Virus genome (UHGV): UHGV-0008253 | Source of the DNA: a virus | Length of the DNA: 42,773 nucleotides | Reading direction: 5' to 3' (one strand) | Position numbers and translations under genes: made by a program | Part shown: positions 5,628 to 38,705 of the stretch, piece by piece | Numbering within the stretch: position 1 is the first letter of the stretch | Layout of the letters: every line of letters begins with the position of its first letter | The notes under the pieces: model-generated | What the model was told of the DNA's origin: nothing | What the model saw: the letters and a program-made list of their open reading frames with translations, nothing else | Databases searched by the model: none

Positions 5628-5642
5628 TTACCGTTGAGGTAA
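5628..5642. promoter_or_regulatory. operator palindrome TTACCgttgaGGTAA at PL-like promoter
   Basis: perfect TTACC-N5-GGTAA; directly downstream of candidate -10 (5643-5648) and -35 TTGACA (5665-5670) on minus strand. Confidence 0.6.
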
Positions 5643-5689
5643 TAATTATGCGTATATGGTTTGATGTCAATAGATATGAGTTAAAAAAA

Positions 5690-5704
5690 TTACCCGTTAG
5701 GTAA
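5690..5704. promoter_or_regulatory. operator palindrome TTACCcgttaGGTAA
   Basis: perfect TTACC-N5-GGTAA 20 bp upstream of the PL-like -35. Confidence 0.6.
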
Positions 5705-5714
5705 TCGAATAGGC

Positions 5715-5739
5715 AATAAAAAAGCCGCCATAAGGCGGC
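5715..5739 (-). terminator. rho-independent terminator after repressor gene
   Basis: hairpin gccgcc-ataa-ggcggc followed by U-run on minus strand, 23 bp after repressor stop. Confidence 0.7.
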
Positions 5740-5761
5740 TTACTTACTGAAAAATATGGTT

Positions 5762-6346
5762 TTATTGTTTGTTTTTTTCGTTCTGGTTGATGACAAATTC
5801 AATGTAACTTTCGATCTTTGCTTTCTCGGTTTCGGGTAACAATGCGTAGCGCGAGCGATCATAGTTGATGGTCGCAGGGTCGTGCGGGTGAATCAGTAAT
5901 TCATAGCCGTGACGCCCGAATGCGGATGCAACATTCTCCAGGGTGGAAATGGAAACGCTGACCTCATTGTTTAACAGGCGGCTGATTGTCACCTGGGCGA
6001 CGCCGGATGCGCGGTGTAGTTTTCCCTGCGTTGAAAGGTCGCGGCTTTCGCTCATCCAGCGTTCCAGGTTGTGAGCCGCCAACTGACCAATGTCGCTAGG
6101 GCCGACAGGCTGAAAACCTTCCTGAGAAAGCGAGCGATCGATATCAAGCCAGTTACGGGGTTTATTGGCGGCAGCTTCAATTTTTCGCGCAACCTGGTCG
6201 CCGATAACCTTCTTGCCAAGAGCCCAGCGGTTTACCAGATTTGCCTGAGTTCCAAGTTTTTCAGCCATCCGCGTCTGAACACCATTGAATTCACGGTCGA
6301 TCAAGTCGTTGAGATTTTGCCTGCGGACGTCCTGGATACTTTTCAT
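5762..6346 (-). CDS. phage repressor, tandem HTH (XRE-type) DNA-binding protein without recognisable S24 autocleavage domain
   Basis: two HTH-like segments (QTRMAEKLGTQANLVNRWALG and ASGVAQVTISRLLNNE); divergent from cro-like gene with operators between. Confidence 0.7.
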   Translation of the reverse strand: MKSIQDVRRQNLNDLIDREFNGVQTRMAEKLGTQANLVNRWALGKKVIGDQVARKIEAAANKPRNWLDIDRSLSQEGFQPVGPSDIGQLAAHNLERWMSESRDLSTQGKLHRASGVAQVTISRLLNNEVSVSISTLENVASAFGRHGYELLIHPHDPATINYDRSRYALLPETEKAKIESYIEFVINQNEKNKQ

Positions 6347-6401
6347 TTTCTGGAAAATCGCCTCATATATGAATCAGTAGATGATTCAATTTAAAGCAAT
6401 A

Positions 6402-6416
6402 TTACCCAACAGGTAA
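6402..6416. promoter_or_regulatory. operator palindrome TTACCcaacaGGTAA in repressor/cro intergenic region
   Basis: perfect TTACC-N5-GGTAA. Confidence 0.65.
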
Positions 6417-6418
6417 AT

Positions 6419-6433
6419 GCACCCCACAGGTAA
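6419..6433. promoter_or_regulatory. degenerate operator GCACCccacaGGTAA
   Basis: right half-site perfect, left half 2 mismatches; lies between two stronger sites. Confidence 0.35.
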
Positions 6434-6449
6434 CTATCCTTGATTTTTG

Positions 6450-6464
6450 TTACCTTATGGGTGA
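6450..6464. promoter_or_regulatory. operator TTACCttatgGGTGA overlapping PR-like promoter
   Basis: 1 mismatch; overlaps -35 TTGTTA (6447-6452), 17-bp spacer, -10 TATTAT (6470-6475) reading toward cro-like gene. Confidence 0.6.
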
Positions 6465-6500
6465 ATATTTATTATCTGAAATAAATATCAGGCAATAGCT

Positions 6501-6731
6501 ATGAGCGATAACGGACATTTCGATTTCAAAAAGCACTGGCTTGCACTTACTCCGGATGAGCGTGAAGCCTTCGCACAGGAAGCCGGAACGACGAGTCACT
6601 ATATCCAGACTCACTTAACAGGTAAGCGCAAAATGCCAGGTAAGGTATTGATGAATGGGCTTTTTAAAGCCTGTAAAACAAGACAATGGCTGCGCTCAAA
6701 AGCAGAATTGGCATACTTCTTCTACTCATGA
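6501..6731 (+). CDS. Cro/CII-like small DNA-binding regulator (first rightward early gene)
   Basis: 76-aa protein divergent from repressor; TSHYIQTHLTGKRK region resembles small phage HTH regulators. Confidence 0.55.
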   Translation: MSDNGHFDFKKHWLALTPDEREAFAQEAGTTSHYIQTHLTGKRKMPGKVLMNGLFKACKTRQWLRSKAELAYFFYS

Positions 6732-6753
6732 TATCCAGCCACAACCCTCTGTA

Positions 6754-6779
6754 GACCGCCATCCGGCGGTCTTTTCATA
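6754..6779 (+). terminator. tR1-like rho-independent terminator after cro-like gene
   Basis: hairpin gaccgcc-atcc-ggcggtc followed by ttttcatat. Confidence 0.6.
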
Positions 6780-6786
6780 TCTATTC

Positions 6787-6801
6787 GTACCTCAAAGGTA
6801 A
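6787..6801. promoter_or_regulatory. operator-like GTACCtcaaaGGTAA
   Basis: 1 mismatch to TTACC-N5-GGTAA, just after the tR1-like terminator. Confidence 0.45.
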
Positions 6802-6881
6802 TAAAAAACCAAATCTGGTTGATCTTTTTTTTGTGTCAGCACAAAATGACCGTAATCCCAATACTAATAACAGGGCTTACC

Positions 6882-7082
6882 ATGGAAATCATTACACGTA
6901 TTGATGCCGCAAAGCGCGGACTTAAACGCTACTACACCGGAAAAACATGTAAGCACGGACATGACAGTGAACGCTGGGTTTACAACGGACACTGTGTTGA
7001 GTGCACCATGGAATCAAACCGTCGTATCAGGGCAGAGATTAAGCAGATCATGATTAATTCCTCCCCACAACATTCAAGCTGA
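6882..7082 (+). CDS. small Cys/His-containing protein (possible zinc-binding regulator)
   Basis: CKHGH...CVEC spacing suggests zinc ribbon; start at internal ATG (MEIITRID); function unknown. Confidence 0.4.
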   Translation: MEIITRIDAAKRGLKRYYTGKTCKHGHDSERWVYNGHCVECTMESNRRIRAEIKQIMINSSPQHSS

Positions 7083-8732: not shown

Positions 8733-8747
8733 TTACCTTAGAGGTAA
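8733..8747. promoter_or_regulatory. operator palindrome TTACCttagaGGTAA
   Basis: perfect TTACC-N5-GGTAA in P/next-gene intergenic region. Confidence 0.6.
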
Positions 8748-8794
8748 TAAAATATTCTAAAATCTATTGATTTCGTGTCTTATGTGGTTTTTAA

Positions 8795-8809
8795 TTACCT
8801 AAGGGGTAA
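8795..8809. promoter_or_regulatory. operator palindrome TTACCtaaggGGTAA overlapping RBS of 8813 gene
   Basis: perfect TTACC-N5-GGTAA ending 4 nt before the ATG. Confidence 0.6.
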
Positions 8810-15145: not shown

Positions 15146-15517
15146 TTATTGCTCGCTTAACTTCTGCTTCAGCAAGTAACCTTCAAGCATCCAGATTTTG
15201 TTTACAGCATTCTGTCGGGCAATCTTCCGACCAATTTCTGCATCAAAGTTTTCCGGGCTTGCACAGGCGCTCTCTCCGGTGACGGTGAAGCCGTTGCGCA
15301 GCACCAGGACGCAGAACGTCAGCAGAGAAAGTGATTCGTGCGGCTGGTAGTTTACCTCTCCGCCAGTATGTTTCGCTTTTATGGCTACGCCAAAGGCACC
15401 ATCTTCTGCTGTGAAATATGCCTCCTGAGCAATAATGCTCTCGATATGGTCTGGCGTAACGCGCGGCGCGGCTAAACCTTTAGCCTGAATTTCAGATTCA
15501 ATGTCTTTTTCACTCAT
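15146..15517 (-). CDS. hypothetical protein (reverse-strand insert, co-oriented with tRNA-Arg)
   Basis: 123-aa ORF; no family recognised. Confidence 0.5.
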   Translation of the reverse strand: MSEKDIESEIQAKGLAAPRVTPDHIESIIAQEAYFTAEDGAFGVAIKAKHTGGEVNYQPHESLSLLTFCVLVLRNGFTVTGESACASPENFDAEIGRKIARQNAVNKIWMLEGYLLKQKLSEQ

Positions 15518-15720
15518 AGTCTAATCTCACCTTAAAAAAATGCCCTGCGAACCGGGCGAACTGGAAGCAATGAGTTATGCCTTCCGTGGCTGTACTGGTT
15601 TACAGCATGAAGTCATCGCAATGGCGTCCTGCTGTAAAAAGGGCGGTGATAGTCCTTCAAGGGAAACCATCACCGCCAAGCACCTGGAACTTCTGGCATC
15701 ACGGTCCTTAGGCGTGATTC

Positions 15721-15797
15721 TGGCGTGGCATGCAGGATTCGAACCTGCGACCAACCGCTTAGAAGGCGGTTGCTCTGTCCGACTGAGCTAATGCCAC
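15721..15797 (-). tRNA. tRNA-Arg (anticodon UCU)
   Basis: cloverleaf read directly: acceptor GTGGCAT/ATGCCAC, D-stem GCTC/GAGC, anticodon stem ACCGC/GCGGT with loop CUUCUAA, T-arm GCAGG-TTCGAAT-CCTGC, discriminator G, CCA. Confidence 0.85.
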
Positions 15798-16119: not shown

Positions 16120-16134
16120 TTACCTGAAAGGTAA
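16120..16134. promoter_or_regulatory. operator palindrome TTACCtgaaaGGTAA upstream of head gene block
   Basis: perfect TTACC-N5-GGTAA. Confidence 0.6.
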
Positions 16135-32961: not shown

Positions 32962-32990
32962 AAAAAAGCCCGCAGCGCGGGCTATTCTTT
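32962..32990. terminator. bidirectional rho-independent terminator
   Basis: hairpin gcccgc-agc-gcgggc flanked by A6 upstream and tattctttttt downstream; overlaps stop of 288-aa gene. Confidence 0.7.
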
Positions 32991-33848
32991 TTTGCTATTT
33001 CTTTGATATATATTTCTTCCATTTTTGGTAACACGAATAACGTGCCCCCTGGATTCTACTTTGTTATTTGTTGCTTTATATACTTCAAAATCAAACCATG
33101 ATATATAACTTATTTCGTCAATAGACACCATGATCTCAAGTCCTAGCACTTTCTTTCTGCTAATTCCTCTTATTGCTGCAGTCCGCTTGACCTGTATTTC
33201 TCCTGGATAAGCATTAGTGAATGTGACAGATAAGTTTTCTTTGTTCCTGTATCCTGACATTAAAGGAACAAAAGATATGTGCTGATGCGGACCCTGATTT
33301 TCCGTTGGTTCACCAGAACCATTTATTATTCCAACATACACTTTGTTTGATGATAAAGTAATCAACATTGGTCGTTTAGGATCCGATTCAATAGCATCAA
33401 GCAATAGTAAGTCTAAAGAACCTTGCGAGTAAGTTTTTCGCAGTACTCTGGCCTTCATTGCCTCTGTTTTTTGCTCGTAAATATCACGTTTATAAAAACA
33501 ACCAAGAAGAAAATCTTTCACCCACACAACAGACACATAACACAAAGAGAAGCAAATGGATGTGGCTGAGAGAAGAAGCAGCCACATGTAAATTCTATCT
33601 GTTTCTGGTTTTGATGTTACATTAAAAGTTTCCACCATATCGTGAACTAGGTGAAAATCAGGCCATTTATATTTTATAGCGGCTGCAATTATTACTGATG
33701 CAACAAGGCAATATGTACCTAATGCAGCTACTTTCATATAAAGAAGCTGGCCTTCATGTCGGTATAAACGGAAATAATGATACTGGTTAGCGGTTATCAT
33801 AATATAACCACTAACCAGAATGGGGATAATTAGAAGAGCTAACAACAC
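32982..33848 (-). CDS. membrane-anchored protein of unknown function (3 N-terminal TM helices + about 170-aa soluble domain), low-GC moron
   Basis: hydrophobic segments at residues about 1-20, 39-58, 88-110; markedly AT-rich codon usage versus neighbours; coupled to upstream 69-aa gene. Confidence 0.6.
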   Translation of the reverse strand: MLLALLIIPILVSGYIMITANQYHYFRLYRHEGQLLYMKVAALGTYCLVASVIIAAAIKYKWPDFHLVHDMVETFNVTSKPETDRIYMWLLLLSATSICFSLCYVSVVWVKDFLLGCFYKRDIYEQKTEAMKARVLRKTYSQGSLDLLLLDAIESDPKRPMLITLSSNKVYVGIINGSGEPTENQGPHQHISFVPLMSGYRNKENLSVTFTNAYPGEIQVKRTAAIRGISRKKVLGLEIMVSIDEISYISWFDFEVYKATNNKVESRGHVIRVTKNGRNIYQRNSKKE

Positions 33849-34057
33849 TATTTCCTTACAGTGGCAAGATCCTGTTTAACAATTGCAGCAGCGAGACGAC
33901 GCATCTCCTTAACCTCAGGAAGCTCAGAAATTTGCTGTGATGAGATATATACTCCACCACGCTTGTTAACCTGCGCTGACGCCGGAACTTCTGCATTTTT
34001 TGCCTGAGGGCTGGGTGCATTATCCCTCGTTTTTGTACGAGCGAACCAAAATCCCAT
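33848..34057 (-). CDS. small protein of unknown function, first gene of two-gene cassette
   Basis: ATG at 34057 preceded by strong SD GAGGAGGAG; stop overlaps start of 288-aa gene. Confidence 0.55.
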   Translation of the reverse strand: MGFWFARTKTRDNAPSPQAKNAEVPASAQVNKRGGVYISSQQISELPEVKEMRRLAAAIVKQDLATVRK

Positions 34058-34083: not shown

Positions 34084-34098
34084 TTACCTTTAAGGTAA
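34084..34098. promoter_or_regulatory. operator palindrome TTACCtttaaGGTAA at promoter of 69-aa/288-aa cassette
   Basis: perfect TTACC-N5-GGTAA 27 bp upstream of start codon. Confidence 0.6.
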
Positions 34099-34164: not shown

Positions 34165-34815
34165 TCAGAAGAACCCTGCCTTGTCGTTGATGTACTCCGC
34201 GTGGGTCTGGATATCACGCAGGCATTTGCTCACACCGACGATGTAGCAGAACATGGTGGTCAGCTCCGCCGCCGCGCCCGATACGTCGTGCCCGTCGTCC
34301 TGTAACTGGTTCAGCAGATTCATCAGCAGTGAGTTCTCCGTCAGGCCGAGAACACCAGACGGCGAATGAATCAGGCTACGGTAGCCGGGCTTCAGTGGGG
34401 CACTGTATTCTTTTTTGTCTTCCAGCTTGATCGCCTCCATAATGGCGGGCATGAAGCCTGACAAGACCTTCTCCACTTTTGTTTCTTGTTGTCTTAAACG
34501 TTTCTCGCATTCAATGAAGTAGCGTCGTACCTGACGACCTTTTTCGTTACGCTCGACCATCGCCAGCTCTTTGGCTGTATCGAGGGTGAGGTGGTAGTCT
34601 TTTGCAGGACGGCCTCTGCCTATTTTTTCCCGAACTTGGGAAATAATCATAAAGTCTTGATTTTCAACGAAACCATATTCAGAAATTCGTTCGACAATCC
34701 ACGAAGCAAATCGCTTACCCACATCGAGGAAAGTGTGTAAATCACGGGCATTAACGAGAAGAGCGGTTTCGTTGGATATAGTGCCGTTGAATACGGGGAT
34801 GAGTTGAGCGTTCAT
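34165..34815 (-). CDS. antirepressor (AntA/Bro-N-like N-terminal domain + C-terminal domain shared with 85-aa protein)
   Basis: N-terminus LIPVFNGTISNETALLVNARDLHTFLDVGKRFASWIVE resembles AntA-type antirepressors; C-terminus about 40 percent identical to 35133-35390 product. Confidence 0.65.
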   Translation of the reverse strand: MNAQLIPVFNGTISNETALLVNARDLHTFLDVGKRFASWIVERISEYGFVENQDFMIISQVREKIGRGRPAKDYHLTLDTAKELAMVERNEKGRQVRRYFIECEKRLRQQETKVEKVLSGFMPAIMEAIKLEDKKEYSAPLKPGYRSLIHSPSGVLGLTENSLLMNLLNQLQDDGHDVSGAAAELTTMFCYIVGVSKCLRDIQTHAEYINDKAGFF

Positions 34816-34973
34816 TATGGCGTCTCCACTTAGCGAATTACATCACCACCGCTGAGACCAATCAGATGGTGGTGAACTGAACGGAGTTGGTCTTACCGGC
34901 CTAAGTGGTACCGGCGTCCTTTCGGACCCCCATTCAGCCCACCATAATTCTGGCATGACTGTGCTATACGCAT

Positions 34974-35095
34974 AAAAAAACCACGTCTGGCGTGGTATGC
35001 GCCACTTAGTAATCCGGGAGACCAATCCCGGCACTGGATTTTGCCAGTGCCCGATTACTATGGCACAAGAGGAGTGCGATGTAAATTTACCTCAA
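34974..35095 (-). ncRNA. candidate small RNA / structured ant leader ending in intrinsic terminator
   Basis: candidate promoter -35 TTGAAA (35124-35129), -10 TTATAT (35102-35107), operator over +1; three stem-loops (ggcactgg/ccagtgcc, ccggga/tcccgg, ccacg/cgtgg) then U7. Confidence 0.4.
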
Positions 35096-35101
35096 AGGTA
35101 A
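35087..35101. promoter_or_regulatory. operator palindrome TTACCtcaaaGGTAA at candidate ant/sRNA promoter
   Basis: perfect TTACC-N5-GGTAA abutting candidate -10. Confidence 0.6.
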
Positions 35102-35132
35102 ATATAAGCACTCCACTTGGTAATTTCAAATC

Positions 35133-35390
35133 TTATCTGGTTTGTTTTCGTAATTGTTCGGCACAATAGTCGAGATGTGTTTGCAGATCCTGCATAGACA
35201 TCTGTGAGCTGGTGACGTAGTTAATCAGTGCAGTCAGTTCGGCAAGTGGGCCATCGACATTAAATCCATCCTTATCGAGATCCCGGAGTAATTTCATCAA
35301 GTGCGATCCCTCCACCAGTGACCTGACGCCTCCCGGCGTGTGAATCCTTTCGGTAAATCCGTCTTCCAGTGGATAGTGATACTGCTGCAT
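35133..35390 (-). CDS. small antirepressor-like protein (stand-alone homolog of Ant C-terminal domain), LexA-box controlled
   Basis: 85 aa from ATG 35390 with GGAGAAG SD; IHTPGGV...LMKLL...DG..V.G.LAELT...DLQTH aligns to Ant C-terminus; LexA box 19 nt upstream. Confidence 0.6.
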   Translation of the reverse strand: MQQYHYPLEDGFTERIHTPGGVRSLVEGSHLMKLLRDLDKDGFNVDGPLAELTALINYVTSSQMSMQDLQTHLDYCAEQLRKQTR

Positions 35391-35409: not shown

Positions 35410-35429
35410 AACTGTATATTTATACAGTA
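35410..35429. promoter_or_regulatory. LexA box (SOS operator) AACTGTATATTTATACAGTA
   Basis: CTGT-N8-ACAG with AT-rich spacer, 18/20 match to consensus TACTGTATATATATACAGTA. Confidence 0.75.
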
Positions 35430-35466
35430 GCAAATAATTTGTTTGCTATCCAGCACGTTTTGCAAA

Positions 35467-35481
35467 TTACCTGAAAGGTAA
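35467..35481. promoter_or_regulatory. operator palindrome TTACCtgaaaGGTAA between LexA-box gene and tailspike
   Basis: perfect TTACC-N5-GGTAA. Confidence 0.6.
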
Positions 35482-35585: not shown

Positions 35586-38500
35586 ATGACGGTCTCAACC
35601 GAAGTTGACCACAACGAATACACCGGTAACGGCGTTACGACATCGTTTCCGTATACTTTTCGAGTTTTCAGAAAATCAGACCTGGTTGTTCAGGTGTCTG
35701 ACCTGAACGGAAACGTAACAGAATTGGTTCTGGATACCGGTTATACGGTAACTGGGGCGGGCACTTATAGTGGCGGTTCTGTGGTTCTTCCGTCTCCGCT
35801 TGCTACTGGATGGCGAATTACGATAGATCGTGTGCTTGATGTAGTGCAGGAGACAGACCTTCGCAATCAGGGAAAATTTTTCCCCGAAGTGCATGAAGAT
35901 GCCTTTGACTACCTGACGATGCTGATCCAGCAATGTTTTGGGTGGTTCAGACGTGCATTGATGAAACCATCTTTGCTTGCAAAATATTACGATGCAAAGC
36001 AAAACAAAATTTCTAACCTTGCAGATCCATCATTTGAGCAGGACGCTGTAAATAATCGCTCAATGCGTAATTATGTCGATGCTGCAATCTCCGGGGTTGT
36101 TGGTGGTTTTGGTTGGTTTATTCAGTATGGTTCTGGGGCTGTGTACCGAACGTTCCAGGATAAAATGCGTGATGCTATTAGCCCCAAAGATTTTGGAGCT
36201 GTTGGTGATGGTATAAATGACGATTCCACTGCAATAAGCGCGTGCCTTGAAGCCTCATCTCCAGGTTATAAAATTGACGGATTAGGGCTTACTTTTAAAG
36301 TATCAACTCTTCCGGATGTCAGTCGATTTAAAAATGCTCGTTTTTTATTTGAGAGAATACCGGGCCAGCCTCTTTTTTATGCTTCTGAAGATTTTATCCA
36401 GGGAGAGTTATTTAAAATTACAGATACACCGTGGTACAACGCCTGGACGCAGGATAAAACGTTTGTATATGACAATGTCATCTATGCGCCTTTTATGGCT
36501 GGAGACCGCCATGGTGTAAATAACCTCCATGTTGCATGGGTTCGCTCAGGAGATGACGGGAAGACCTGGACAACGCCGGAATGGCTTACAGATTTACATG
36601 AAAACTATCCCACAGTTAACTATCACTGCATGAGTATGGGGGTTGTCAGAAATCGCCTTTTTGCTGTAATTGAGACGCGGACCGTGAGCGGAAATAAACT
36701 GCAGGTTGCAGAGTTGTGGGATCGCCCAATGAGTCGCAGCCTTCGCGTTTATGGTGGTATAACGAAAGCAGCAAATCAGCAAGTCGCTTATATTCGCATT
36801 ACTGATCACGGATTATTTGCTGGTGATTTTGTCAACTTCTCAAACTCTGGTGTTACAGGTGTTACCGGGAATATGACGGTGACTACTGTTATTGATAAAA
36901 ATACTTTTACAGTTACGACGCAAAATACCCAGGATGTGGATCAGAATAACGAGGGTAGATACTGGAGTTTTGGTACATCATTTCACTCGTCACCATGGAG
37001 AAAAACCAGTCTTGGAACTATTCCTTCTTTTGTTGACGGAAGCACTCCTGTTACTGAGATTCACAGTTTTGCGACGATTAGCGATAACAGTTTTGCTGTT
37101 GGCTACCATAATGGTGATATTGGTCCACGCGAGCTTGGGATACTCTATTTCTCTGATGCTTTCGGTTCTCCTGGTAGCTTTGTTCGCAGACGCATACCTG
37201 CAGAATATGAGGCGAATGCATCTGAGCCATGTGTAAAATATTATGATGGCATTCTGTATCTGACGACCAGGGGGACATTAAGTACTCAACCCGGTAGTTC
37301 ATTGCACAGAAGCTCTGATTTAGGTACATCATGGAATTCTCTTCGCTTCCCAAATAATGTTCATCACTCAAACCTTCCTTTTGCCAAAGTTGGCGATGAG
37401 CTGATTATTTTTGGCAGTGAGCGCGCATTTGGTGAGTGGGAAGGAGGAGAACCTGATAACCGTTATGCAGGAAACTATCCAAGAACATTTATGACCAGAG
37501 TTAACGTCAATGAGTGGAGTCTGGATAATGTAGAGTGGGTTAATGTTACTGATCAGATTTATCAGGGCGGAATAGTTAACTCTGCGGTTGGTGTTGGTTC
37601 AGTTTGTATCAAAGACAACTGGCTGTACTACATTTTCGGTGGGGAAGACTTTCTAAACCCATGGAGCATAGGGGATAACAACAGAAAATATCCTTATGTT
37701 CACGATGGTCACCCGGCTGATTTGTATTGTTTCAGGGTGAAAATTAAACAGGAAGAATTTGTTTCAAGGGATTTTGTCTACGGAGCCACTCCTAACAGAA
37801 CGCTTCCTACTTTTATGTCGACGTCAGGCGTGAGGACGGTTCCTGTACCCGTTGATTTCACAGATGATGTTGCCGTCCAGTCACTGACTGTCCATGCAGG
37901 TACATCAGGACAAGTTCGCGCGGAAGTCAAACTTGAGGGTAATTACGCCATTATTGCGAAGAAAGTACCGTCTGATGATGTTACCGCTCAGAGATTAATC
38001 GTTAGCGGCGGTGAAACAACGTCTTCAGCAGATGGTGCAATGATAACGTTGCATGGTTCCGGAAGCAGTACTCCACGTCGCGCGGTATATAACGCACTCG
38101 AACATCTTTTTGAGAACGGAGATGTTAAACCTTATCTTGATAATGTAAATGCTCTTGGTGGTCCGGGAAACAGGTTCTCGACAGTTTATCTTGGCTCCAA
38201 TCCTGTGGTTACCAGTGACGGAACATTAAAGACAGAGCCGGTCTCTCCTGACGAAGCATTGCTGGATGCCTGGGGTGACGTCAGGTATATCGCTTATAAA
38301 TGGCTGAACGCTGTCGCTATAAAGGGGGAAGAAGGGGCGAGGATACATCATGGTGTAATCGCGCAGCAACTTCGTGATGTTCTTATTTCTCACGGACTCA
38401 TGGAAGAAGAAAGCACAACATGCCGCTATGCCTTTCTTTGCTATGACGATTATCCCGCAGTATATGATGACGTCATTACTGGCCAAAGGGAAATGCCGCT

Positions 38501-38705
38501 GACTGATAATGACGGGAGCATCATTGTTGATGAGGATGATAATCCAGTGATGGTAATAGAAGACATCATTGAGCGCGTTGAAATAACGCCAGCAGGATCT
38601 AGATGGGGGGTCAGACCTGATCTCTTATTCTATATCGAGGCAGCATGGCAGCGCAGAGAAATGGATAAGATAAAAGAGCGGGTTCAGTCTCTGGAAGAAC
38701 GTTAA
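35586..38705 (+). CDS. tailspike / receptor-binding depolymerase with pectate-lyase-like beta-helix and C-terminal intramolecular chaperone (S74-like) domain
   Basis: ISPKDFGAVGDGINDDSTAISA motif typical of beta-helix tailspikes; C-terminus SDGTLK...IHHGVIAQQLRDV...AAWQRREMDKIKERVQSLEER resembles autoproteolytic chaperone domains. Confidence 0.8.
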   Translation: MTVSTEVDHNEYTGNGVTTSFPYTFRVFRKSDLVVQVSDLNGNVTELVLDTGYTVTGAGTYSGGSVVLPSPLATGWRITIDRVLDVVQETDLRNQGKFFPEVHEDAFDYLTMLIQQCFGWFRRALMKPSLLAKYYDAKQNKISNLADPSFEQDAVNNRSMRNYVDAAISGVVGGFGWFIQYGSGAVYRTFQDKMRDAISPKDFGAVGDGINDDSTAISACLEASSPGYKIDGLGLTFKVSTLPDVSRFKNARFLFERIPGQPLFYASEDFIQGELFKITDTPWYNAWTQDKTFVYDNVIYAPFMAGDRHGVNNLHVAWVRSGDDGKTWTTPEWLTDLHENYPTVNYHCMSMGVVRNRLFAVIETRTVSGNKLQVAELWDRPMSRSLRVYGGITKAANQQVAYIRITDHGLFAGDFVNFSNSGVTGVTGNMTVTTVIDKNTFTVTTQNTQDVDQNNEGRYWSFGTSFHSSPWRKTSLGTIPSFVDGSTPVTEIHSFATISDNSFAVGYHNGDIGPRELGILYFSDAFGSPGSFVRRRIPAEYEANASEPCVKYYDGILYLTTRGTLSTQPGSSLHRSSDLGTSWNSLRFPNNVHHSNLPFAKVGDELIIFGSERAFGEWEGGEPDNRYAGNYPRTFMTRVNVNEWSLDNVEWVNVTDQIYQGGIVNSAVGVGSVCIKDNWLYYIFGGEDFLNPWSIGDNNRKYPYVHDGHPADLYCFRVKIKQEEFVSRDFVYGATPNRTLPTFMSTSGVRTVPVPVDFTDDVAVQSLTVHAGTSGQVRAEVKLEGNYAIIAKKVPSDDVTAQRLIVSGGETTSSADGAMITLHGSGSSTPRRAVYNALEHLFENGDVKPYLDNVNALGGPGNRFSTVYLGSNPVVTSDGTLKTEPVSPDEALLDAWGDVRYIAYKWLNAVAIKGEEGARIHHGVIAQQLRDVLISHGLMEEESTTCRYAFLCYDDYPAVYDDVITGQREMPLTDNDGSIIVDEDDNPVMVIEDIIERVEITPAGSRWGVRPDLLFYIEAAWQRREMDKIKERVQSLEER

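Follow-up and report, generated by a model that had tools for sequence, protein, structure and literature searches.

Why a prophage should carry, side by side, two antirepressor genes that appear to share a protein domain is the question raised by UHGV-0008253, a virus genome of 42,773 nucleotides (nt), the whole of which is hereafter called the window. The window is a complete temperate podovirus prophage of E. coli, of the epsilon15/phiV10/SPC32H type (genus Uetakevirus), and the region under study shows 90-95% DNA identity to phiv142-3, ZX5, TL-2011b and phiV10. A sequence-only reading of this region had described two adjacent, co-oriented genes, one for a full-length antirepressor (Ant) and one for a protein consisting of its C-terminal domain only; the two genes do lie next to each other on the minus strand, the long one at 34165..34815 and the short one at 35133..35390. 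Our interpretation, to which we assign a probability of roughly two in three, is that they deliver one domain able to bind the prophage repressor (Rep) under two different controls. As one of the genes would be induced by DNA damage and the other gated by an antisense RNA, the prophage probably possesses two independent induction triggers.

The short gene (35133..35390, minus strand) encodes 85 amino acids (aa), its start agreeing with a GGAG ribosome site and with the 86-aa length of the Ant protein of the Salmonella phage SPC32H. A phmmer search of the PDB matched the product over residues 2-84 to 5D50_E, 'Anti-repressor protein' (E 4e-47), tblastn gave 88% identity to the SPC32H ant product, and the protein matches phrog_450, a family of 'unknown function' in PHROGs. 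Judged by these similarities it is the ortholog of the LexA-controlled SPC32H Ant; the idea that it might be a fragment of the long protein was rejected, since it corresponds to a known standalone Ant. The promoter region contains a LexA box, CTGTATATTTATACAG (35412-35427, unstranded), an exact CTGT-N8-ACAG with an A/T-rich core, which is located between the promoter and the ribosome site and is conserved in ZX5, phiV10, Tyrion, a Klebsiella phage and SPC32H. Further upstream, one base before a -35-like TTGCAA (35460-35465), lies a perfect copy of a putative Rep operator, TTACCTGAAAGGTAA (35467..35481, unstranded), whose half-sites TTACC/GGTAA do not vary ahead of the short gene in six phages, SPC32H among them.

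The long gene (34165..34815, minus strand) encodes 216 aa comprising an AntA domain (residues 21-90, nt 34546-34755; Pfam PF08346, E 7e-28, 97.4 bits against a cut-off of 27), a linker and a C-terminal domain resembling SPC32H Ant (residues 135-216, nt 34168-34413). Of the 'Bro/AntA-like' N-terminal domain that had been proposed, the AntA part holds for this phage, Bro-N being the domain found in sister phages. The proposed duplication of the C-terminal domain is borne out by sequence alignment and by structure prediction alike. BLASTP aligned residues 135-212 of the long protein with the short one without gaps (31/78 identical, 40%; E 8e-20), and the Smith-Waterman score of 162 stands far above the 27 +/- 4.5 obtained in 2000 shuffles (z = 30). 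Used alone as a query, the long protein also finds 5D50_E in the PDB (E 9.5e-14, residues 135-211), and it matches phrog_377 'anti-repressor Ant' over its full length and phrog_450 over residues 133-214 (E 5e-36). An AlphaFold (AF2) model of residues 122-216, with a predicted local distance difference test score (pLDDT) of 84.7, had 5D50_E as its sole PDB match (probability 1.00, template modelling (TM) score 0.83, root-mean-square deviation 1.1 A); this C-domain model was used alone, the full-length model, built on a 14-sequence alignment, being unusable at a pLDDT of 43.7. The C-terminal 82 residues of the long Ant are an old paralog of the short Ant with the same fold, and the long protein contains an SPC32H-type Ant domain without being a canonical standalone member of about 85 aa. 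A natural chimera, P0023 (84 aa), joins an N-terminal half of the short-Ant type, MPQQYHHPLEDGFTERIHTP, to a C-terminal half of the long type, DGHDVSGAAAELTTMLCYIAGVSKCLREIETHAQYV, and the two paralogs therefore recombine.

The presumed common target of both antirepressors is encoded by the same phage. Rep (5762..6346, minus strand), a cognate two-domain repressor, aligned over its full length with the SPC32H Rep in a phmmer search of the PDB (5D50_A 'Repressor', E 4e-42, residues 1-190); the two proteins are 42% identical, and the Rep proteins of the named E. coli reference phages in the lineage are 98.5-100% identical to that of the window. The palindrome TTACCTNNNAGGTAA (TTACC-N5-GGTAA) occurs 17 times in the window with at most two mismatches, against 1.0 expected. 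Perfect copies are found in the short-gene promoter (35467-35481), in the long-gene promoter (35087-35101) and at 34084-34098, which agrees with the earlier suggestion that each ant gene has an operator-bearing promoter of its own. A cluster marks the rep/cro region, with copies at 6402 and 6450 between rep and a cro-like gene and at 5628 and 5690 beside the leftward early operon, and more copies lie 5' of several other operons; on the grounds of position and conservation we regard the palindrome as a putative Rep operator. Dispersed Rep-type operators (136-150, 5628-6801, 8733-8809 and 16120-16134) precede the integrase gene, the leftward early operon, rep/cro, an 87-aa open reading frame (ORF; 6819-7082), a DUF1064 gene and the portal gene, a genome-wide scatter that is nearer to the dispersed C1 operators of phage P1 than to a lambda-like two-site switch.

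The suggestion that only the short gene has a LexA box also proved correct: upstream of the long gene, within 34816-35132, there is no CTGT-N8-ACAG, even with one mismatch. What the sequence-only reading overlooked is that the 317 bases between the two ant genes contain two RNA genes, IsrK (34974-35050) and C4 (34865-34949), both on the gene strand. The promoter that precedes them carries the Rep-type operator TTACCTCAAAGGTAA (35087..35101, unstranded), placed one base from the -35 TTTACA (35080-35085) of a conserved promoter-like site, TTTACA-17-CATAGT (35057..35085, minus strand; 9/12 matches in a promoter scan, with TG before the -10). The operator also shares its last base (35101) with the -10 of an upstream promoter-like site (TTGAAA 35124-35129 / TATATT 35101-35106). 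The array of operator, TTTACA, 17 bases and CATAGT is kept in all relatives, including the Klebsiella phages and TL-2011b with their different upstream context; in TL-2011b, an insertion of 1.1 kb separates the short ant gene from the isrK promoter. Transcription is predicted to start at about 35050, which is the 5' end of IsrK and the position at which the Rfam isrK model begins.

The IsrK-family RNA matches Rfam RF01394 over its full length (34974..35050, minus strand; 67.7 bits, gathering threshold 50) and closes with a strong intrinsic terminator found by a terminator scan (stem 34980-34996, U7 run to 34974, minus strand). It is followed by an antisense RNA of the C4 family, again a full-length match (34865..34949, minus strand; RF01695, 61.2 bits, gathering threshold 45), and by the leader of the long ant gene (34816..34864, minus strand). 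All three parts carry matching sites on the same strand. C4 exposes a segment a', AGACCAA (34887-34893), and a loop b', CCACUUAG (34901-34908). Their exact complements occur in IsrK as the decoy sites a1, UUGGUCU (35019-35025), and b1, CUAAGUGG (35002-35009), and again in the leader, where a2, UUGGUCU (34855-34861), forms the loop of a CACCACC/GGUGGUG hairpin and b2, CUAAGUGG (34826-34833), overlaps the Shine-Dalgarno sequence GGAG (34824-34827). C4 ends 50 nt upstream of the long-ant ATG, and no icd-like ORF is present in these 50 nt. An ORF of 63 aa (34843..35034) and a ZX5 coding sequence annotated as 'ash family protein' (locus L003, 1935-2048) overlie the C4 RNA and are probably spurious protein calls.

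Variation of the putative RNA gate among relatives was examined in 68 loci, namely the window, four reference phages and 63 IMG/VR contigs, in which the a site has three variants and the b site four, giving seven combinations, or specificity classes; the sites of class 1 are UUGGUCU/CUAAGUGG and those of class 2 UUGGCGU/CUAAAAGG. The IsrK sites a1/b1, the C4 segments a'/b' and the leader sites a2/b2 are cognate to each other in 68/68 loci and all seven classes. For the a1:a' helix, all 217 of 217 cells are standard pairs and four of the seven pairs have changed on both sides, a result equalled by none of 500 shuffles, while slid controls gave 23-54% pairing. These counts of exact complements and of covariation were used instead of RNAduplex energies between C4 and the leader, which did not discriminate among classes because shared stems dominate them. 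Across all phages of this comparison the short Ant is 99-100% identical, and since Rep of the reference phages is 98.5-100% identical as well, the specificity of the RNAs diversifies within one Rep immunity group. The diversity of classes resembles heteroimmunity of the P1/P7 type on a larger scale. Wherever a long gene is present, IsrK and C4 lie ahead of it; SPC32H has neither RNA. Combinations of IsrK, C4 and leader (window 34816-35050; loci L012-L091) re-assort with different N-terminal domains of the long Ant, and one class of relatives (L012) has a 168-aa ORF ahead of a long Ant of the ORF6N type. In some IMG/VR loci the long gene seemed to contain premature stops, which turned out to be artefacts of locus ends.

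Comparison with ZX5 shows how the region has been assembled. Identity is about 100% from 35600 to 35030 (start of the tailspike gene, short gene, both promoters and the 5' part of IsrK); the sequences are divergent from about 35030 to 34400 (the 3' half of IsrK with its sites, C4, the leader and the N-domain), and identity returns to 97-100% from 34400 to 34150 (C-domain), similarity ending past the stop codon. The downstream joint of this mosaic falls at about residue 138 of the long protein, where homology to the short Ant starts. Within the lineage a near-identical C-domain is preceded by AntA, by at least five Bro-N subtypes or by ORF6N as in Gifsy-1 AnrP, and long-type C-domains are 96-100% identical where the N-domain and the RNA cassette are exchanged. 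An exhaustive profile search of 1.8 billion proteins showed the C-domain family to be small, with 63 clusters at 50% identity, fusions to Phage_pRha included.

A neighbour-joining tree has two clades, one of short Ants and one that unites the long-type C-domains from phages of E. coli, Enterobacter and Klebsiella; in each phage the long and short C-domains are 37-38% identical. The duplication is therefore an old one of which both copies were retained. By the same sequence comparisons it is older than the separation of the three phage lineages. The identity of the long C-domain, as aligned here, also tracks that of the resident Rep, the respective values being 98 and 100% in E. coli, 79 and 78% in Enterobacter, and 52-54 and 45% in Klebsiella. 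Among 80 viral contigs with a short Ant of the E. coli type, 72 also have an intact long gene and six are without it, the other two being truncated at the contig end. The short gene occurs alone in SPC32H, SPN1S and the other Salmonella relatives examined, and in PAS61, BUCT554 and BUCT711, while the long gene of phiV10 is frameshifted inside the C-domain (L002, 3012-3691; split into PhiV10p23 and p22), either because the gene is inactivated or because of a sequencing error in the record. By this distribution the long gene is a widespread extra that the phages can do without. At least 80% of the module is present in no fewer than 79 of 5426 complete E. coli genomes, the short gene being labelled 'hypothetical protein' by RefSeq in E. 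coli genomes. Truncated long-type remnants exist in Raoultella and Klebsiella chromosomes; standalone 'long-type' proteins of 95 aa, considered as a separate gene class, were discarded as their context identified them as such a remnant behind an integrase/AlpA insertion. TL-2011b, from E. coli O103:H25, carries a P22-type arc - sar RNA - ant module (L004, 4425-5609) besides its short and long Ant, which makes three antirepressor systems in one phage.

How these parts may work together can be outlined with the help of SPC32H. In the studies of Kim and Ryu and of Kim and colleagues, SPC32H Ant is reportedly repressed by LexA, the SPC32H Rep is said to stay uncleaved in the SOS response, and an Ant tetramer is reported to bind the C-terminal domains of two Rep dimers and to dismantle the DNA-bound Rep tetramer; the standalone Ant is said to be enough for antirepression. 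From these precedents and the features described above we infer the following scheme of binding events and directions of regulation. LexA would keep the short gene silent until DNA damage, through the SOS response, removes it and short Ant is made. Tetramers of short Ant would next engage two Rep dimers at the Rep C-terminal domains and take the Rep tetramer off its operators, and as this release would include the operators at both ant promoters, positive feedback would follow. The long gene would be transcribed from its Rep-operator promoter, IsrK first, with most transcripts ending at the IsrK terminator. RNA that reads through would carry C4, whose two loops would pair with a2 and b2 over the ribosome-binding site of the long ant gene and block translation, as in the immI region of P1. 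The a1 and b1 sites of IsrK may titrate C4, in parallel with the activation of AnrP by IsrK in Gifsy-1, and long Ant would therefore be made when the balance between IsrK and C4 tips. Possible events of this kind are a Rep that starts to fail, in a feed-forward manner, or physiological cues that raise IsrK. Another release may occur when a phage with the same Rep and a different C4 specificity enters a lysogen, the resident C4 being mismatched to the incoming sites. In all of this the N-domain, AntA here, would be an exchangeable accessory and the C-domain would confer specificity for Rep.

A published experiment on the long form was carried out with ZX5, whose Rep is 100% and whose long C-domain is 97.6% identical to those of the window. 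Overexpression of ZX5 ORF4, which consists of Bro-N and this C-domain, lowered lysogens from 1e9 to 1e6 per mL (about 1000-fold) and rep mRNA by 75%, in a paper that names neither SPC32H nor LexA nor the neighbouring short gene (PMC9782041). In Gifsy-1, IsrK supplied in trans activates translation of AnrP, and AnrP induces the prophage (PMC4825925). Several points count against the interpretation that both genes serve to inactivate Rep. The ZX5 result was obtained by plasmid overexpression of a GST fusion, with no deletion, and does not distinguish the acting domain (PMC9782041). At about 38% identity between the two candidate Rep-binding domains, target or oligomer state could have diverged. 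The long gene can be dispensed with, as it is frameshifted in phiV10 and absent from six contigs, from PAS61 and from the Salmonella members examined. The putative operators lie just upstream of both -35 hexamers, with one base between, a position from which some regulators activate instead of repressing. In addition, an icd-like upstream ORF is missing, and the proposed block of the ant ribosome site by C4 is deduced from complementarity alone.

Other roles for the long protein have to be weighed against this evidence. Its C-domain could have diverged to inactivate the repressors of heteroimmune prophages and not the Rep of its own phage, as might be suspected from the 37-38% identity of the paralogs in every phage and from the trans-acting antirepressors known in Salmonella (PMC3121763); moreover, between E. 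coli and Salmonella phages the short Ant is 88% and Rep 42% identical, so Ant-Rep matching is not strict. We nevertheless think this unlikely, because the identity of the long C-domain follows the resident Rep over three host lineages, because the domain is 96-100% identical wherever Rep is identical, even with its surroundings exchanged, and because ZX5 ORF4 acted on ZX5 itself (PMC9782041). An account in which the C-domain is an oligomerisation module only, the active part being the N-terminal AntA, Bro-N or ORF6N domain working on DNA or on a host factor, seems to us marginally less likely again. Such N-domains are widespread in phage regulators annotated as antirepressors, and Gifsy-1 AnrP and N15 gp30 carry them in front of unrelated C-termini. 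However, at least four N-domain families (AntA, Bro-N, Phage_pRha and ORF6N) have been exchanged before one C-domain family, three of them before a near-identical C-domain in a single Rep immunity group, as would be expected if specificity resides in the C-domain. The sufficiency of the standalone 85-aa version for antirepression in SPC32H, as reported by Kim and Ryu, argues in the same direction.

The sequence-only reading had offered two interpretations, namely two inputs to one mechanism of repressor inactivation or a dominant-negative relationship between the two proteins. The first is favoured by the shared fold, the operators, the contrast of LexA with IsrK/C4 control and the ZX5 experiment; the second fares poorly, although mixed oligomers may form. 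It would have the long protein co-assemble with short Ant through the tetramer-forming domain and so damp or delay SOS induction. Both proteins do share the fold of an Ant that, according to a summary in a later paper, acts as a tetramer (PMC9638917), their genes are adjacent and both under putative Rep control, and the P0023 chimera indicates that the two halves are at least structurally compatible. Yet overexpression of the long form in ZX5 favoured lysis, not lysogeny (PMC9782041), an identity of about 38% gives little reason to expect conserved hetero-interfaces, and an elaborate off-switch suits a dangerous inducer better than a brake, all of which makes such a modulator improbable. We attach the least weight of all to the notion that the long gene is a decaying duplicate, a by-product of recombination with no maintained function. 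The phiV10 frameshift, the absence of the gene from some close relatives and the truncated remnants in Raoultella and Klebsiella chromosomes would suit it, but 72/80 contigs have an intact ORF whose C-domain is 96-100% identical, the RNA regulators show strict compensatory covariation, and the duplication arose before the phages of E. coli, Enterobacter and Klebsiella diverged.

Each half of this arrangement has a recognizable counterpart. With the SPC32H Rep-Ant pair (PDB 5D50/5D4Z) the window shares an orthologous short gene adjoining the tailspike gene, the same LexA box and operator in its promoter, a Rep homologous over its full length and, in the long Ant, a C-domain of the same fold; SPC32H and the other Salmonella members examined differ in having no second copy, no IsrK/C4 cassette and no N-terminal fusion. 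With the immI region of P1/P7 (c4 - icd - ant) it shares a putative repressor operator at the promoter, a C4-family RNA in the ant leader, two C4 loops complementary to a1/b1 upstream and to a2/b2 at the ribosome-binding site, and the occurrence of specificity variants in phages that have their main repressor in common. Unlike in P1/P7, the a1/b1 sites of the window reside in a separately terminated IsrK RNA, there are seven classes and not two, and, as the window has no icd ORF, b2 overlaps the Shine-Dalgarno sequence of ant itself. P22 immI (mnt-arc-ant, sar RNA) is likewise a second region of immunity, and its Ant, which is kept silent in the lysogen, inactivates the main repressor; the region differs in its regulators (Mnt/Arc and sar RNA), in an unrelated Ant and in a main repressor that is also RecA-cleavable.

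Two phages share the overall logic. The isrK-orf45-anrP region of Gifsy-1 likewise has an IsrK whose terminator is read through into an antirepressor-like gene, with a processed C4/CI-like RNA (STnc1160) downstream as in the window (PMC4825925), and Gifsy-1 also has a separate small antirepressor under LexA control (PMC3121763); the window differs in lacking the orf45 leader ORF. BLASTP gave no significant similarity between AnrP and the long Ant of the window, and the AnrP C-terminus has no paralog in Gifsy-1, although some E. coli relatives (L012) have an ORF6N N-domain like that of AnrP fused to the C-domain described here. N15 combines a small SOS-controlled AntC with immA (antA-icd-antB), which is gated by a small processed RNA (PMC4488713); its two loci are far apart, in contrast to the adjacent genes and common effector domain of the window. 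AntC and gp30 of N15 have no detectable homology to each other, and the gp30 C-terminus has no paralog in N15. As neither Gifsy-1 nor N15 has a shared effector, the duplication is not general among phages with dual antirepressors. In the N15 RefSeq record (L092, 15565-15830) a consensus LexA box, CTGTGTTTATATACAG, stands ahead of an ORF that the record leaves unannotated; this ORF begins MVYDSMTDAAVS, lies downstream of gene 47 and is presumably the published LexA-controlled antC.

The surroundings of the module offer some further observations. The integrase gene lies at 193-1449. The tailspike gene (35586-38705) encodes an endosialidase with End_N_terminal, beta-propeller, beta-barrel and tail-spike catalytic domains and an S74 chaperone, the N-terminal 200 residues being an adaptor of the phiV10/epsilon15 type; as the tailspike is a full endosialidase, this Uetakevirus should be specific for the K1 (polysialic acid) capsule. 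On the other side of the long gene, the third perfect Rep-type operator (34084-34098) precedes a 69-aa gene (33848-34057, phrog_5739), which is overlapped by the gene of a 288-aa protein with N-terminal membrane helices (32982-33848, phrog_3630); neither of these downstream genes has a Pfam or PADLOC match. The 69-aa gene lies downstream of long ant in some relatives too (L012), and others have different cargo there, such as a YafO toxin in TL-2011b. A transfer RNA (tRNA) gene (15724-15797, minus strand) is located upstream of a gene of the N4 gp49/Sf6 gp66 family (15146-15517), and an exact CTGT-N8-ACAG, CTGTACTGGTTTACAG (15590-15605), falls between them; it is a doubtful LexA site, because its core is G/C-rich and the window's three exact matches are about what chance would give.

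All components of the module are of known kinds, namely an SPC32H Ant, a P1-type C4 gate, IsrK and proteins with AntA or Bro-N domains, and the logic of pairing an SOS antirepressor with an RNA-gated one already exists in N15 and Gifsy-1. What appears to be new is that the two antirepressors have a common effector domain and, apparently, that the RNA gate has diversified into many specificities within one Rep group; in open-access text we found no mention of the domain shared by the two genes. A more general, tentative proposal, which we hold possible without leaning towards it, is that many phage 'antirepressors' known by no more than a Bro-N, AntA, Rha or ORF6N N-terminal domain are two-part proteins, with a small C-terminal module for repressor specificity and a generic, exchangeable N-terminal accessory, and that the seven or more IsrK/C4 classes among phages with one Rep are mutually heteroimmune. 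The present lineage shows the two-part principle openly because its C-module also exists as a standalone protein that has been crystallised with its repressor. The crystallised SPC32H Rep-Ant mechanism would in this way be linked to a larger and poorly understood class of multi-domain 'antirepressors', and the C-terminal part of these proteins would receive a concrete functional assignment.

There is also an annotation gap to be closed, as the short Ant is a 'hypothetical protein' in RefSeq and of 'unknown function' in PHROGs, and some records wrongly annotate the C4 RNA as a protein. The module is relevant to the prediction of prophage induction in E. coli, the window copy residing in a phage with a K1-capsule endosialidase tailspike. 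Within one prophage, a single effector would answer both DNA damage and an SOS-independent, RNA-gated signal. If the classes are mutually heteroimmune, nothing would restrain the synthesis of long Ant by a phage that enters a lysogen of another class, and the resident prophage would be induced; this would amount to an RNA-coded arms race over a shared repressor.

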